Origin: an uncultured Spirochaetaceae bacterium
GTDB taxonomy: Bacteria > Spirochaetota > Spirochaetia > Treponematales > Treponemataceae
Reading direction: 5' to 3'
NCBI GenBank assembly: GCA_902797055.1
Contig: CADBRT010000117.1
Span: 4,249-68,248 of the forward strand
Length of the DNA stretch: 64,000 bases
In this document: positions 2,181 through 6,074 of the stretch, one piece after another
Numbering within the stretch: the first letter of the stretch is position 1
Layout: each line of letters starts with the position of its first letter
The notes under the pieces: generated by a model
What the model was told of the DNA's origin: nothing
The model's database searches: none
What the model saw: only the letters and a program-made list of their open reading frames with translations
Position numbers and translations under genes: made by a program

Positions 2181-3563
2181 ATGGCAAAGAAAAAAGGCTC
2201 CATCGTCTACAAGTGTTCTTCCTGCGGCTACACGCAGCCGGGCTGGCTCGGCAGATGTCCGCAGTGCGGGGAATGGAACACGCTCGAAGAGTGCATAACC
2301 GACCCCAACGCCGCCACCCCCACACTGTCAGGAGGCACCGCCGTAAAAGTCCGCCCGGTGCCGCTGGCAAAAATAGCAGTCCAAGGGGAAGGCAGAATCA
2401 CAACGGGAATAGAAGAATTCGACCGGGTGCTCGGCGGCGGAGCGACGCTGCGCAGCGCTGTACTCATCGGAGGGGAACCGGGCATTGGCAAATCCACCCT
2501 GTTGCTCCAGAGTGCGGCATCGGTTTTAAAAGCCCACAAAGGCCGCATTCTGTATGTCTCCGGAGAAGAGTCAGCTTCACAGATAAAAGGGCGCGCCACA
2601 CGGCTTGCACTAGACGTAGGACAGGTGGAAATTCTGTGCACACTCCGTCTCGAAGACATCCTCGACGCATTGGACAGCCTGACCCCGTCACTCGTCATCA
2701 TAGATTCGATACAGACCGTCTACTCCGTACAGGCTGGAATCGTGCCGGGAACGGTCAGCCAGCTCAAATACTGTGCAAACGAACTCATCGGCTGGGTTAA
2801 AGAGCGCGACAGCGTGCTTTTCATGACAGCCCATGTCACCAAAGACGGCACCATTGCAGGCCCAAAAAGCCTGGAGCACATGGTGGACACCGTCATCTCA
2901 TTCGAACGCAACAACAACGACGACCTGCGCTTCCTGCATGCGCTCAAAAACCGCTTCGGCTCTGTAGATGAGCTCGGCGTTTTCAAAATGGAACAGGACG
3001 GCTTAAAGATGGTTGACGACCCCAGCACATTGTTCATAACAAAACGGGAAAAGGGACTGCCGGCAGGCGTCTCCTGCGTGCCGGTCTTTGAAGGAAGCCG
3101 CGTTTTTGTGGTGGAAATACAGGCACTGACGGTGGGTGCAAAAGGCGCAATCAACCGCGTCTACTCGGACAGAATTGACAGCGCGCGGGTGAGCCGCGTT
3201 GCAGCCGTCATTGAAAAATGTGCAGGCATCAAATTCAGCGATGTCGACATCTACATAAACGTCGCAGGAGGGGCGCGCCTTTCTGAAAGTGCCATCGACG
3301 CAGCGCTGGCAGCCGCACTGTATTCAGCGCGTACCGACATAGCGCTGCCGGAACGGACCGCAATCGTCGGAGAACTCAGCCTCGCCGGCGAAATCCGTCC
3401 CGTCGCCAAACTGAAGGAGCGCGTAAAGGCGGCGAAGGAAATGGGCTTCACCACCGTGCTGACGCCGGAAAAATCCGCAGGCGCTACAGCCGTCTCCGAC
3501 ATCAGCGCGCTGGTGCGGGCGCTGTTTTCCAATACGCTTGACGGCAAAACAACCGTTCGTTAA
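2181..3563 (+). CDS. radA: DNA repair protein RadA (Sms)
   Basis: N-terminal zinc finger CSSCGYTQPGWLGRCPQCGEW, Walker A GGEPGIGKST, RadA-specific KNRFG motif (ALKNRFGSVDE), and a Lon-protease-like C-terminal domain. Confidence 0.95.
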   Translation: MAKKKGSIVYKCSSCGYTQPGWLGRCPQCGEWNTLEECITDPNAATPTLSGGTAVKVRPVPLAKIAVQGEGRITTGIEEFDRVLGGGATLRSAVLIGGEPGIGKSTLLLQSAASVLKAHKGRILYVSGEESASQIKGRATRLALDVGQVEILCTLRLEDILDALDSLTPSLVIIDSIQTVYSVQAGIVPGTVSQLKYCANELIGWVKERDSVLFMTAHVTKDGTIAGPKSLEHMVDTVISFERNNNDDLRFLHALKNRFGSVDELGVFKMEQDGLKMVDDPSTLFITKREKGLPAGVSCVPVFEGSRVFVVEIQALTVGAKGAINRVYSDRIDSARVSRVAAVIEKCAGIKFSDVDIYINVAGGARLSESAIDAALAAALYSARTDIALPERTAIVGELSLAGEIRPVAKLKERVKAAKEMGFTTVLTPEKSAGATAVSDISALVRALFSNTLDGKTTVR

Positions 3564-3566
3564 AGT
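3538..3566 (+). promoter_or_regulatory. Candidate sigma70-type promoter for the small ORF at 3633 (TTGACG-N17-TAAAGT)
   Basis: TTGACG at 3538-3543, a 17-nt spacer, and TAAAGT at 3561-3566 overlapping the radA stop codon. This would give a 5' UTR of about 60 nt. Based on the sequence pattern only. Confidence 0.3.
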
Positions 3567-3596
3567 ATTATTAGGAATCCCGCCGCAAGGGTAGAC

Positions 3597-3623
3597 GTCT
3601 CCTAATCTTAACGAAAAGGAGAC
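3597..3623 (+). promoter_or_regulatory. Candidate SD-sequestering hairpin in the 5' UTR of the small ORF
   Basis: GTCTCCT (3597-3603) is the exact reverse complement of the Shine-Dalgarno-containing AGGAGAC (3617-3623). The loop is 13 nt, and the ATG follows at 3633. Confidence 0.35.
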
Positions 3624-3632
3624 CCGCGTAAT

Positions 3633-3710
3633 ATGACAAATTACGAGAAAGTAATGCTCGTCATTGCTATTATTGGTTTGATTATAAACGTGGTAGCTCT
3701 CATCAAATAG
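3633..3710 (+). CDS. Unannotated 25-aa hydrophobic peptide MTNYEKVMLVIAIIGLIINVVALIK; candidate type I toxin (BsrG / holin-like-toxin style)
   Basis: ATG lies 9 nt after an AAGGAGA SD. The peptide has a single predicted transmembrane helix. As I recall the sequence, about half of the positions match B. subtilis BsrG (MTVYESLMIMINFGGLILNTVLLIF...) when aligned from residue 1. It is too short for the supplied ORF track. Confidence 0.4.
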   Translation: MTNYEKVMLVIAIIGLIINVVALIK

Positions 3711-3724
3711 TATTTGCTGAAAGC

Positions 3725-3815
3725 GTAAAAATAAAGCCTGCCCCATAGCGTGACAACTTCTGGACAGGCTTTTATAAGCTACAAAGGAGACATCGCACTG
3801 TGGCGGGGTTCCTTT
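3725..3815 (-). ncRNA. Predicted ~90-nt antisense/convergent small RNA (candidate antitoxin)
   Basis: The RNA is bounded by the minus-strand promoter at 3822-3850 and the terminator at 3733-3773. It contains GTCTCCTTT (complement of plus 3783-3791), which is perfectly complementary to the AAAGGAGAC SD region (3615-3623) of the small ORF. It would overlap the 3' end of the small-ORF mRNA at the shared hairpin. Confidence 0.3.
3733..3773. terminator. Bidirectional hairpin terminator between the small ORF (+) and the helicase gene (-)
   Basis: AAAGCCTG (3733-3740) pairs with CAGGCTTT (3765-3772), plus 2 further GC pairs. On the minus strand it is followed by TTTATTTTT, and on the plus strand by TTTTATAA. 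Confidence 0.6.
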
Positions 3816-3821
3816 TGTATT

Positions 3822-3850
3822 ATCATACAGAACTTTTTTTACCACGTCAA
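3822..3850 (-). promoter_or_regulatory. Near-consensus sigma70-type promoter on the minus strand (TTGACG-N17-TATGAT)
   Basis: Read on the minus strand: TTGACG (plus 3845-3850), a 17-nt spacer, and TATGAT (plus 3822-3827). It lies between the helicase stop codon (3867) and the terminator hairpin. Confidence 0.4.
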
Positions 3851-3866
3851 GGGACGATGTACCTGT

Positions 3867-6074
3867 TCACTGCTCCTCGAGCATGAGAGCGCGGGACTGG
3901 TATTTGGGCAGAAATTTCTTTATCGGGGAGCCGGAATCCGTCGCAGTTTCAAACCTGACGCTCACGATGAGCTCCCCGTCAGCGGTATATTCGCTCTTCA
4001 CTATCTGACCGTGCCCGTAGTCATCGTGATAGACACCTGCCCCTACGTGGTATTTTTTCGACAGCGAATCCGCACCGGCACCGGCGGCGAACGAAAGCGG
4101 TTTTTCACCGAGGATGCGAAGCCGCTCCGCACCTATTTCACTCAGAAACGGGCTGGGGCTCATATACTTCGTCTGCCCGTACAACCGGCGGAACGAACAG
4201 CACGTAAAATACAGCTCATTCTTTGCGCGGGTAATCCCCACGTAAAACAGTCGGCGTTCCTCTTCGATTTCCGTCTCGCTTTTGTCTTCCCGCGGGAAGA
4301 TGCCGCTCTCCATCCCAGTGATGATAACACGCGGGAACTCCAACCCCTTTGTGTTGTGCAGCGTTATCAGCGTCACCGAATCTTTTTCCCCATCGTCGTC
4401 TTCACTGTTTTCAAGCGTCCTGTCCAACTGCACGTGGTCGAGGAAGTCCAGCAGCCCCTGCTTCGTGCACGGGTACAAGACAGCACTGTTCACAAGCTCC
4501 TGCAAGTTTGCCAGCTTCTGAGTCCCGGAAACGTCATCCTTTGCCTTATGGTAATCCTCAAGCCCCGACTTTTCGACGACAGCATCGATGAATACCGACA
4601 GTTTGTCACCGGACTTAGACTCCCCTTCCGGCAGCAAATCGGAGAACTCTTTTGCGAGGACTGCGAAACGCTTTGCGCCGTCGGCAGCTTTTTTCGAAAG
4701 CTTGACTTCCGTACATGACTGCGTAATCGGCACGCCGCGGGAAAGCGAGTCCTGTAGGATTTTATCTTGGGAAGTATTTCCCACACCCTGGGCGGGTTTA
4801 TTCACAACGCGGCGGAACGCAACCTCATCACGCGGATTCGCGACGAATGCAATCCAAGCGAGCGCATCTTTTACCTCTTCCCGTTCGTAGAATTTTAAAG
4901 AACCTACTATAGTATAGGGGATTTTTGCATGCAGGAATTCCGTTTCAAAACCAAGCGACTGAGCATTCGTCCTGTACAGGATAGCCCAGTCTTTATACGG
5001 CACACCCTTCTTGTGTGCCTGAACAATGATTTCCCGGCAGAACTGCGTTTCATCCTCCTGATTCGGAAGAAAAACGAGCGTTGGAGTTTTTCCGTCGCCG
5101 CGCGCCGCCACAAGCGTTTTCCCCAAGCGGCTTTCGTTGTGTCTTACGACATTGTCCGCACAGGCAAGTATCTTGCTCGTCGAGCGGTAATTGGTCTGCA
5201 GCCTGATGAGCGCAGTACCGGGGAACTGCGACTGGAAATTCAGGATGTTCTGAACTTCCGCACCGCGGAACCGGTAAATGCTCTGGTCATCGTCGCCGAC
5301 GACACAGACATAGATACCGGAATCTTCCTCCACTCCTGAAAGTTCACGCAAAAGCTTGAACTGCGCCACATTGGAATCCTGATACTCATCGACCATTATA
5401 ACCCGATACTGGGTATGTATACGTTCACGGATATTTTCATTATCCCTAAGCACAAGGTATGGCAGCATAATCAAGTCTCCGAAGTCGACATTGCCAGTCT
5501 GCTTGAGACGCTCCTGATACTGCTTATATATAGAAGGAAATGAGGGATCTTCAGTCACCGTGTACAGTTCTTCACTTTCAGGCTCAAGGCAATAGTCCTT
5601 TGCAAGCGCTATGTGGTGGGCGGCTTGGGACGCCTGCTGTCGCGAAAGAGTAGGAACAGCGCGGGTCAGCAGCGTCACCATATCGTCATCATCGTAGACG
5701 GTAAAACTGCTGCTGATGCCGGCTTCAAGCGCATACCGACGCAAAAAATACGCCCCCCAGGAATGGAACGTGCGTATCTGGGCATACTGAGAACGAGGCT
5801 CCAAAGCGATAGCACGTTCTTTCATCTCTGCCGCCGCTTTTTTCGTAAACGTAACAGCAAGGATTGCGTACGGATCCACGTGCTTTTCTTTTATCAGCCA
5901 CGCTATCTTCGTTGTGATGACACGGGTCTTCCCGGAACCTGCTCCTGCAAGAATCAGAAGGGAAGAACCTTCATGCAGAACAGCTTCCTTCTGCTCCGGG
6001 TTCAAGACATCGAGATAGCTTTCAGTCCCCACAGAACTCTCCGTCAACATCGACTTCGGAAGCCGCAAGCGCAT
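3867..6074 (-). CDS. ATP-dependent DNA helicase, UvrD/PcrA family
   Basis: SF1 helicase motifs AGAGSGKTRVIT (I), VDEYQDSN (II), TNYRST, TLHNTKGLEFP (V) and YVGITRAK (VI). The start may instead be the Met at 6050. Either start overlaps the 3' end of the upstream gene. Confidence 0.9.
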   Translation of the reverse strand: MRLRLPKSMLTESSVGTESYLDVLNPEQKEAVLHEGSSLLILAGAGSGKTRVITTKIAWLIKEKHVDPYAILAVTFTKKAAAEMKERAIALEPRSQYAQIRTFHSWGAYFLRRYALEAGISSSFTVYDDDDMVTLLTRAVPTLSRQQASQAAHHIALAKDYCLEPESEELYTVTEDPSFPSIYKQYQERLKQTGNVDFGDLIMLPYLVLRDNENIRERIHTQYRVIMVDEYQDSNVAQFKLLRELSGVEEDSGIYVCVVGDDDQSIYRFRGAEVQNILNFQSQFPGTALIRLQTNYRSTSKILACADNVVRHNESRLGKTLVAARGDGKTPTLVFLPNQEDETQFCREIIVQAHKKGVPYKDWAILYRTNAQSLGFETEFLHAKIPYTIVGSLKFYEREEVKDALAWIAFVANPRDEVAFRRVVNKPAQGVGNTSQDKILQDSLSRGVPITQSCTEVKLSKKAADGAKRFAVLAKEFSDLLPEGESKSGDKLSVFIDAVVEKSGLEDYHKAKDDVSGTQKLANLQELVNSAVLYPCTKQGLLDFLDHVQLDRTLENSEDDDGEKDSVTLITLHNTKGLEFPRVIITGMESGIFPREDKSETEIEEERRLFYVGITRAKNELYFTCCSFRRLYGQTKYMSPSPFLSEIGAERLRILGEKPLSFAAGAGADSLSKKYHVGAGVYHDDYGHGQIVKSEYTADGELIVSVRFETATDSGSPIKKFLPKYQSRALMLEEQ

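Follow-up and report, generated by a model that had tools for sequence, protein, structure and literature searches.

The spacer between radA and a helicase gene in a contig of an uncultured Spirochaetaceae bacterium (GenBank assembly GCA_902797055.1, contig CADBRT010000117.1, positions 4,249 to 68,248; the whole analysed stretch of 64,000 nt is hereafter the window) contains a compact unit of about 340 bp that encodes a predicted 25-residue membrane peptide and, on the opposite strand, a predicted small RNA directed towards the peptide gene. The window derives from a gut or rumen Treponema. We are highly confident that this unit is a functional, conserved cassette made up of a peptide gene and a small-RNA gene, and we put the probability of a genuine type I toxin-antitoxin module at roughly 70%, with toxicity, transcription and the antitoxin role predicted from sequence. 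The cassette is a well-supported candidate for a new type I toxin-antitoxin family. Its features, including an open reading frame (ORF), its Shine-Dalgarno (SD) sequence and the elements that might control them, are located in the window as follows.

3524-3866, both strands: the whole conserved cassette, as delimited with nhmmer, extending from the 3' end of radA up to the stop codon of the helicase gene (3867-3869, minus strand)

3531-3563, plus strand: segment at the left end of the cassette that codes for the C-terminal RadA extension SNTLDGKTTVR

3538-3566, plus strand: putative toxin promoter with -35 TTGACG (3538-3543), N17 and -10 TAAAGT (3561-3566), overlapping the last radA codons and the stop codon

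3573-3777, plus strand: predicted toxin mRNA of about 205 nt, with ends placed by the promoter and terminator positions; fold z-score -2.4

3597-3603, plus strand: cis anti-SD GUCUCCU, 5' arm of the predicted SD-sequestering stem-loop, with a homologous stem in 11 of 12 loci

3615-3623, plus strand: SD region AAAGGAGAC, first copy of a direct repeat and 3' arm of the same stem-loop

3633-3710, plus strand: 25-codon ORF encoding MTNYEKVMLVIAIIGLIINVVALIK, with homologues, a gap-free alignment and a ratio of non-synonymous to synonymous differences (pN/pS) of 0.38

3728-3815, minus strand: predicted antitoxin small RNA of about 88 nt with putative ends, consisting of a 5' hairpin, a single-stranded linker and the terminator

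3733-3773, both strands: shared, GC-rich bidirectional intrinsic terminator hairpin, which folds, with 97.5% of cells paired and compensatory changes at two pairs

3783-3791, minus strand: second copy of the direct repeat, read as GUCUCCUUU on the minus RNA, complementary to the toxin SD region; 3' arm of the small-RNA 5' hairpin

3799-3813: right arm of an inverted repeat with its left arm at 3573-3587, 87% over 15 nt (AGGAACCCCGCCACA versus AGGAAUCCCGCCGCA)

3822-3850, minus strand: predicted small-RNA promoter with -35 TTGACG (3850-3845), N17 and -10 TATGAT (3827-3822)

Direct reading of the sequence recovered all elements listed in an initial annotation of this locus, none of them displaced by more than one base. 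The annotation had described a 303-nt gap with a compact architecture; the contents of the gap were as described, and its coordinates are corrected here to 3564-3866, between radA (2181-3563, plus strand) and a UvrD/PcrA-type helicase gene (3867-6074, minus strand), both assigned with Pfam. Within the spacer, the GC content falls locally to 39%, which is compatible with a spacer or with an insert. The 25-codon ORF at 3633-3710 was read as proposed, and its product, MTNYEKVMLVIAIIGLIINVVALIK, amounts to approximately one transmembrane helix. The SD sequence ahead of its start is AAGGAGA(C), present as AAGGAGAC at 3616-3623, 9-10 nt 5' of the ATG. A promoter scan of the region yielded three sites compared with 0.3 in shuffled sequences, and among them were both promoters proposed earlier, TTGACG-N17-TAAAGT on the plus strand at 3538-3566 (9/12) and the near-consensus TTGACG-N17-TATGAT on the minus strand at 3850-3822 (10/12).

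The cassette is not confined to this locus. At least 12 distinct loci besides the window carry it in a form of about 340 nt, and the neighbours differ each time (an ABC transporter/Big_2 protein, HTH-DUF1706, grpE-dnaK/asnA, GmrSD, PDDEXK_4, TetR and others). An nhmmer profile of 12 cassettes matched window positions 3524-3866 end to end (E = 1.7e-68). Homology queries for the 25-residue peptide were constructed by duplicating or concatenating peptides. The duplicated window peptide, used as the sole query, retrieved no family member, and three concatenated family peptides used as a protein query retrieved 16 mis-called ORFs, two of which are annotated as hypothetical proteins of Treponema sp. 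metagenome-assembled genomes (MAGs). A scan of metagenomes identified a 2.9-kb contig (L085) with a tandem array of 455-nt units, which contains two homologous ORFs (MSKYEKAMLIVAILTLIVTALNLFK and MTKYEKAMLVIAIIGLIIDALNLFKFFL) and an orphan 3' half-unit. Finally, a filter-free profile search of 1.84 billion representatives detected 46 clusters (50% identity) at E <= 0.001; peptides fetched from 32 of these clusters are 25-37 residues long, and a basic tail closes many of them, MTTYEKAMLVVAILRLIIDAVALFTQKRK and MTSYEIAMLAIAILSLIVNAVALFKQTKK being examples. The searches of phage and plasmid records (tblastn with the peptide) and of viral contigs produced no match, and the Pfam and NCBIfam scans of the single window peptide returned nothing relevant. 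Two loci are multi-copy, namely the L085 array and L090, which has two near-identical copies 1,024 nt apart, whereas L087, L097 and L101 are decayed or truncated copies. Such a patchy, multi-copy pattern is typical of type I modules.

Given this recurrence, the most trivial explanation of the locus can be dismissed. AT-rich spacers often contain short ORFs and promoter matches of 9/12, and the hairpin would terminate the helicase transcript too; an accidental ORF with promoter-like hexamers, next to a hairpin that serves merely as the terminator of the convergent radA and helicase genes, could therefore be envisaged from the window alone. However, the unit is found again in unrelated contexts, complete in all its elements, and this recurrence, the conservation of the ORF and the 46 peptide clusters together refute a chance origin, to which we assign a practically negligible probability.

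The peptide gene is the best conserved part of the unit. In the alignment of 12 cassettes, the ORF occupies 75 gap-free columns, whereas indels occur in every other segment, and the mean pairwise nucleotide identity is 73% in the ORF compared with 44-60% in the promoters, untranslated regions (UTRs), terminator and small-RNA region. The pair-summed proportions of synonymous and non-synonymous differences in the ORF are pS = 0.52 and pN = 0.20, a ratio of 0.38. Judging from these substitutions, the 25-codon ORF is under purifying selection. The encoded peptide MTNYEKVMLVIAIIGLIINVVALIK has a polar N-terminus (MTNYEK), one predicted transmembrane helix with an 18-residue hydrophobic core and a single terminal Lys. 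The residues M1, Y4, E5, M8, L9, A12, I13 and L16 are invariant or nearly so, and position 19, within the helix, is mostly polar (D, N, E or T).

The similarity of the peptide to BsrG, put at about one half in the initial annotation, proved to be 13 identical residues of 25 when the window peptide was aligned directly to BsrG residues 1-25. For the profile comparisons, the Hol_Tox family was represented by BsrG, the sequence of which was confirmed from phage SPbeta, from the annotation of a B. subtilis plasmid and from a paper; by the product of a Lysinibacillus plasmid gene annotated as 'putative holin-like toxin' (MMTTYEAMSLMVSFSGLIVSVIVLSFTFSQKKK); and by a TxpA sequence supported only by its Pfam Hol_Tox match. 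With hhalign, the profile of the peptide family matched BsrG with a probability of 87%, the Lysinibacillus holin-like toxin with 85% and TxpA with 76%, in each case from Met1 and in register. The control sequences, reversed BsrG and a putative Fst sequence, each gave 0.3%, and none of 400 composition-preserving shuffles reached the score (maximum 15.4, compared with 23-25). When the hidden Markov model (HMM) of the family was run over 6,580 small ORFs, the three known toxins took ranks 1, 3 and 4 (shuffle p = 0.0004-0.006). Hol_Tox is also the only recurrent Pfam match among 35 family peptides, of which 16 matched it, all below the cut-off and with a best E value of 0.0013; the Pfam Fst model matched neither the window peptide nor the family peptides. 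HMM similarity to Hol_Tox, a check named in the initial annotation, is thus present at the level of profile-profile comparison (76-87%) and falls short of the Pfam gathering score. On these sequence comparisons we conclude that the peptide family is probably related, in divergent form, to the Hol_Tox (TxpA/BsrG) superfamily, without reaching the cut-off set for curated membership.

Translation of the peptide appears to be restrained within its own mRNA. As had been noted, GTCTCCT at 3597-3603 is an exact complement of AGGAGAC at 3617-3623, and self-occlusion of the SD gains support from folding: in the minimum free energy (MFE) structure of the predicted plus transcript the two elements pair, holding the SD in a 7-bp stem, and in the predicted mRNA the pairing probabilities are 0.96-1.0 for SD bases 3617-3623 and 0.98-0.99 for the AUG. 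When each 5' UTR was folded separately, the SD was paired with an upstream CUCC-type element in 11 of the 12 loci, the exception being L087/88, in which the 5' part is replaced. The arms of the stem vary by lineage (GUCUCCU/AGGAGAC, ACCUCC/GGAGGU, CCUCUCAUU/AAUGGGAGG and GCCUCC/GGAGGC), and in a hand-registered helix two pairs show double changes, UA<->CG and GC<->AU. This alignment was fitted to the structure and hence leans towards it. RNAalifold applied to a MAFFT alignment of the 5' UTRs gave no consensus structure, because the register shifts between subfamilies.

The small-RNA gene on the minus strand is delimited by a promoter and a terminator that are both conserved. The promoter, of the form TTGAC(A/G/T)-N16-17-TATAxT, scores 10-11/12 in 11 of the 12 loci, frequently with an extended -10 TG, and its GTCAA and TA positions are invariant in the 12-locus alignment; the equivalents of the plus promoter in the other loci score 8-11/12. 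The minus promoter scores at least as high as the toxin promoter in nine of the 12 loci and lower in three (L086, L095 and L097); it strictly outscores the toxin promoter in only six. A near-consensus, well-conserved antitoxin promoter is the usual arrangement in type I systems, and the minus promoter is consistent with that. Downstream, the hairpin at 3733-3773, for which bidirectional termination had been suggested, is indeed present, with one correction: it is a stronger terminator for the minus-strand RNA than for the plus-strand one. Its tail is T-rich on the minus strand, and the U tract on the plus strand is shorter. Together, promoter and terminator define a predicted convergent RNA of about 88 nt, close to the 90 nt proposed earlier, and covariation accompanies them. 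This RNA folds at -29.2 kcal/mol (z -2.4) into a 5' hairpin and the terminator. In the consensus over the 12-locus alignment, 94.3% of cells are paired and 8 of 19 pairs show compensatory changes; none of 500 shuffles reached the covariation score, and slid controls were 37-60% paired. Read as minus RNA, the 5' hairpin has 98 of 108 cells paired, including 17 G.U pairs, compared with 86 of 108 and 5 G.U pairs when read as the plus strand, the asymmetry predicted by selection on the minus transcript. Rfam gave no relevant match for the window region (E <= 10) or for six other loci (E <= 1). Several independent contigs (L004, which ends at window position 3744, L092 and L085) break within the terminator hairpin; these may be assembly breaks at a sequence common to cassette copies and a hint of more copies per genome.

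The predicted RNAs could meet in two places. At the shared hairpin they overlap over 3728-3777, as had been anticipated for the 3' end of the toxin mRNA, with about 50 bp of perfect complementarity; in the cofold this amounts to 50 intermolecular pairs and a free-energy difference (ddG) of -59.6 kcal/mol. The other place is the SD. The 9-nt perfect complement of the SD region claimed for the small RNA is present, minus-strand GTCTCCTTT being the reverse complement of a second plus-strand copy of AAAGGAGAC (3783-3791). Transcription of a 9-bp DNA direct repeat in both directions would place GUCUCCUUU in the small RNA. In the window, AAAGGAGAC occurs only three times on both strands, two of the copies lying at this locus, 168 nt apart; the shorter GTCTCCT/AGGAGAC occurs 16 times, three of them within this 200-nt stretch. 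Between the two transcription units, no direct repeat on the plus strand other than the SD element is recurrent; this element is exact over 9 nt in the window and imperfect in L093 (14 nt, 79%) and L097 (15 nt, 73%), and the CUCC-type motif of the small RNA gives 6-9 contiguous pairs with the SD, in register, in 11 of the 12 loci. The second AAAGGAGAC was also considered as the SD of a plus-strand ORF at 3800-3886, a candidate that was rejected, the ORF being absent or truncated in most loci. In the window, this is a 28-codon ORF with a GTG start, located 10 nt past the second AAAGGAGAC and antisense to the helicase 3' end, and it is probably no gene.

The ends of the cassette are imperfect inverted repeats that span the -10 boxes and the first 15-45 transcribed nucleotides. 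Besides the repeat in the window, the one in L089 matches GGTGGCAGTCTCCT to AGGAGATTGCCACC (93% over 14 nt), in addition to 71% over 28 nt that include the -10 boxes, and L091, L093 and L095 have inverted repeats like those of the window and L089. It follows that the small RNA has as its 5' part a paralogue of the toxin leader that extends through the anti-SD. Moreover, when the SD is forced open, the next-best fold of the leader pairs its 5' end with the anti-SD, like the hairpin of the small RNA (-8.7 versus -16.0 kcal/mol). These relationships suggest that the antitoxin may have arisen by inverted duplication of the toxin leader and may act as a trans copy of the cis anti-SD.

The same inverted repeats admit two less favourable interpretations. 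Under the first, the peptide, a toxin or other small protein, would be regulated in cis by the anti-SD stem alone; the minus promoter and hairpin would be a by-product of the inverted duplication of the cassette end, or would belong to a small RNA with other targets, and the minus RNA would not be the antitoxin. The origin of the small-RNA 5' part as an inverted paralogue of the mRNA leader fits this possibility, as do an anti-SD motif that lacks cognate specificity and is sequestered in its own hairpin and the retention of ORF and SD in L101, where the small-RNA gene is gone. Nevertheless, we regard it as improbable, because few non-coding features are as well conserved as the minus promoter, which is correctly spaced in 11 of the 12 loci; because the G.U asymmetry and the covariation indicate selection on the minus RNA; because the orphan half with the small-RNA gene is retained in the L085 array; and because the shared terminator by its nature makes the minus RNA perfectly complementary to the toxin mRNA over 50 nt. 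Under the second interpretation, the unit is a miniature mobile element with imperfect terminal inverted repeats, in which the ORF and promoters are incidental passengers. Apart from the repeats, the genomic context that differs at every locus and the disruption of the radA stop codon by the window copy speak for such an element, yet the ORF is the most conserved part, gap-free and with its low pN/pS, the inverted repeats fall on the inward-facing promoters and on the 5' ends of the transcripts, the unit has no accompanying transposase gene, and no obvious target-site duplication was seen on an inspection of the window junctions that was not systematic. We consider this origin very improbable.

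The locus was also compared with known type I systems. The initial annotation saw in the locus a mirror of BsrG/SR4. This is not borne out: the small RNA ends at about 3728 and the ORF at 3710, and since the small RNA overlaps the terminator only, without overlap with the ORF, the layout is unlike that of BsrG/SR4, in which, as in TxpA/RatA, the antitoxin overlaps the toxin ORF (PMC8594479). The arrangement of the two predicted RNAs is a better match to par (Fst/RNA II) and SprA1/SprA1AS, which the T1TAdb paper describes as the families with an antisense RNA 3' of the ORF, no overlap with the ORF and interaction outside the overlap (PMC8594479). In par of plasmid pAD1, the promoters converge on a bidirectional terminator that both RNAs use and at which they first make contact; oppositely transcribed direct repeats mask the initiation region, and a stem-loop in the 5' part covers the SD (PMC7472228). 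With par of this Enterococcus faecalis plasmid and its chromosomal homologues, the cassette shares promoters that converge, a bidirectional terminator common to both RNAs, with complementary stem-loops, a 5' stem-loop that sequesters the SD, and an antitoxin without ORF overlap. A direct repeat read in both directions, as in par, may provide a second complementary region at the toxin initiation site. It differs from par in having one short repeat (9 nt in the window, 6-9 pairs in 11 of the 12 loci), with negative cognate tests, in place of DRa and DRb; in its peptide, which is not Fst-like (0.3% in hhalign with the putative Fst sequence) and lacks a PXXXG motif; in its phylum; and in the inverted paralogy of the 5' part of its small RNA to the toxin leader. 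The SprA1/SprA1AS (PepA1) system of Staphylococcus aureus likewise has a cis-encoded antisense RNA with a short 3' overlap outside the ORF, and, according to Sayed et al. 2012 as cited in PMC8594479, functional pairing takes place outside this overlap, at the ribosome-binding site. PepA1, unlike the cassette peptide, belongs to the Fst family, and for the cassette trans action at the SD is a prediction.

In the peptide itself, the resemblance is to the TxpA/RatA and BsrG/SR4 systems of Bacillus subtilis. The shared features are M-[TS]-x-Y-E followed by a helix with G-L-I at positions 15-17 and a convergent antitoxin on the 3' side. A basic tail is present in many relatives of the window peptide, which itself ends in a single Lys. 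In the two Bacillus systems, the stretch of toxin ORF covered by RatA or SR4 is about 75-120 nt. The Bacillus systems reside on prophages or the skin element in Firmicutes, whereas the cassette copies lie between chromosomal genes of Treponema, and the cassette peptides are shorter (25-29 residues, compared with 38-59 for the Bacillus toxins). The par-like layout combined with a Hol_Tox-like peptide therefore points to a cassette that would work like par and carry a TxpA/BsrG-like toxin. Type I modules had been said in the initial annotation to be essentially undescribed in spirochaete-like genomes, and our full-text literature searches (type I with Treponema or spirochete; the peptide motif) gave nothing relevant. 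According to Fozo et al. 2010, the type I toxins then known had no detected homologues beyond Firmicutes and Enteroproteobacteria, and relatives of TxpA were placed in Firmicutes alone; the text of the T1TAdb paper does not mention spirochaetes (PMC8594479).

The mechanism that we propose starts from a self-contained type I toxin-antitoxin-like cassette of about 340 bp that would have inserted at the radA 3' end in a gut Treponema. From a sigma-70-type promoter, an mRNA of about 205 nt would be transcribed. It would encode a membrane peptide of 25 residues with a single helix, a distant Hol_Tox relative, the translation of which would be restrained in cis by the 7-bp stem formed by the upstream anti-SD (GUCUCCU) with the SD. 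From a convergent, highly conserved near-consensus promoter, a small RNA of about 88 nt would be produced that ends at the same bidirectional terminator. The two RNAs would be fully complementary over about 50 nt at the terminator, and GUCUCCUUU of the small RNA, complementary to the SD and derived from the 9-bp direct repeat, would provide a second contact. The small RNA may dock at the terminator loops, with decay of the duplex and/or a block of the ribosome-binding site to follow; the peptide would stay silent until the small RNA is depleted and would then insert into the membrane and arrest growth. In this scheme, the transcript ends, the pathway of RNA-RNA interaction and the toxicity of the peptide are those that we infer.

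Several observations weigh against this reading. The Hol_Tox cut-off of 23.3 bits, comfortably exceeded by BsrG (34.5) and TxpA (31.3), is reached by none of the peptides: the window peptide gives no match, its duplicated form scores 16.2, and no relative is above the threshold. The window peptide ends in one Lys, without a polybasic end, whereas the C-termini of its relatives are in many cases basic (QKRK, KQTKK, QNMKK) and in others FKFFL. Covariation in the SD stem is modest, with two compensatory pairs and a score that 20 of 500 shuffles reached. Cognate and non-cognate pairings of the small RNA with the SD are alike (-16.95 versus -16.34 kcal/mol; 6.5 versus 6.1 contiguous pairs), so that this contact is a conserved motif and not a demonstrated co-evolving pair, and the anti-SD of the small RNA and the SD are both closed in their own hairpins. 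The cassette was seen in none of about 55 other Treponema radA loci and only once in the 64-kb window. In addition, the tandemly duplicated hydrophobic YhzE-2, which has antisense RNAs, is not toxic (Fozo et al. 2010).

The last point bears on the main competitor of a toxin-antitoxin module, namely a conserved small membrane protein with a non-toxic role (for example, as a modulator of a membrane complex) whose expression a stem-loop in cis and a convergent small RNA would adjust. Any functional small-protein gene could show such selection on its ORF and such conserved RNA elements, and the missing polybasic tail of the window peptide and the location of several copies between housekeeping genes would be unsurprising for such a protein. 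We nonetheless rate it as unlikely. The peptides resemble specifically BsrG and TxpA, which are experimentally toxic; the patchy distribution, variable contexts, tandem duplication and frequent decay contrast with the synteny expected of a housekeeping protein; and two layers of translational repression are predicted.

Taken as a toxin-antitoxin module, the cassette lends itself to a more specific account, which combines its origin, its mechanism and its mobility and which we offer tentatively, as possible rather than probable. The antitoxin would have arisen by inverted duplication of the toxin promoter and 5' leader, making the small RNA a trans-acting version of the cis anti-SD arm (GUCUCCU) without its SD; the unit of about 340 bp, bounded by inward-facing inverted repeats, would move into the 3' ends of genes; and a TxpA/BsrG-type toxin would be combined with par-type RNA control, so far known only in separate Firmicute families. 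With a family of this kind in Treponema of the gut and rumen, the Hol_Tox superfamily would reach across phyla, and it would be clear that a toxin type (TxpA/BsrG-like) and an RNA control logic (par-like) can be recombined. The paralogy between the antitoxin 5' region and the toxin leader suggests a simple route to an antisense antitoxin. A compact, self-contained cassette of this size could also serve for plasmid stabilisation or counter-selection in Treponema, where genetic tools are few.

The position of the window copy at the end of radA was analysed in related genomes. The nearest species representatives are Treponema and Spirochaetaceae MAGs with RadA identity of at most 80%. Contigs with an identical RadA were found in ENA and Logan metagenomes, where the spacer likewise has no called gene; contigs of the same species differ from the window by only 1-6 bases and, being nearly identical, are uninformative. 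Across 80 radA loci, the 3' neighbour of radA varies in the relatives, and the junction of radA with the helicase gene is not maintained in other Treponema species; the peptide was not found in the relatives, and the nhmmer cassette profile detected no copy in the 80 loci. The window RadA extends 11 residues (the SNTLDGKTTVR listed above) past a conserved LF motif, whereas 12 relatives mostly stop 1-4, and up to 8, residues past it. The extension, put at about 8-10 residues, is encoded by the stretch that holds the plus promoter, and the radA TAA stop codon lies inside the -10 box of the toxin promoter. The RadA extension is probably the footprint of cassette insertion at the very end of radA.

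Several copies depart from the common organisation. The L085 array (1916-2870) begins with the orphan half-unit, which consists of the terminator and small-RNA gene only, and its units contain an extra minus-strand terminator (2123-2107 and 2580-2564) between the small-RNA promoter and the next toxin promoter, which could stop antisense read-through. Upstream of the array (297-1899), ORFs of 217 and 165 residues are each followed by the same long hairpin repeat, which is present in three copies; the 217-residue product has a weak, sub-threshold match to CdiA_C (E = 0.003), recalling orphan polymorphic-toxin modules. In L090 (4040-5394), the two cassettes flank an ORF of 192 residues (4309-4887) without a Pfam match, which starts in the small-RNA promoter region of the first copy. 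L097 (4001-4195) has lost the stop codon, giving a 64-residue product that runs through the terminator, and has a GTG start, as does L094 (411-491). L087/88 (L087 4071-4336) lacks the toxin promoter and the anti-SD, and L101 (2440-2640) keeps the SD and ORF without the anti-SD, terminator or small-RNA gene.

The homologues in the protein collections (P0001-P0053) are all uncalled or mis-called, being extended upstream through the 5' UTR or past the stop codon. The read-through entries have Q or W at the stop-codon positions of related loci, which was checked for L093 only and suggests that a gene caller applied an alternative genetic code to short contigs.

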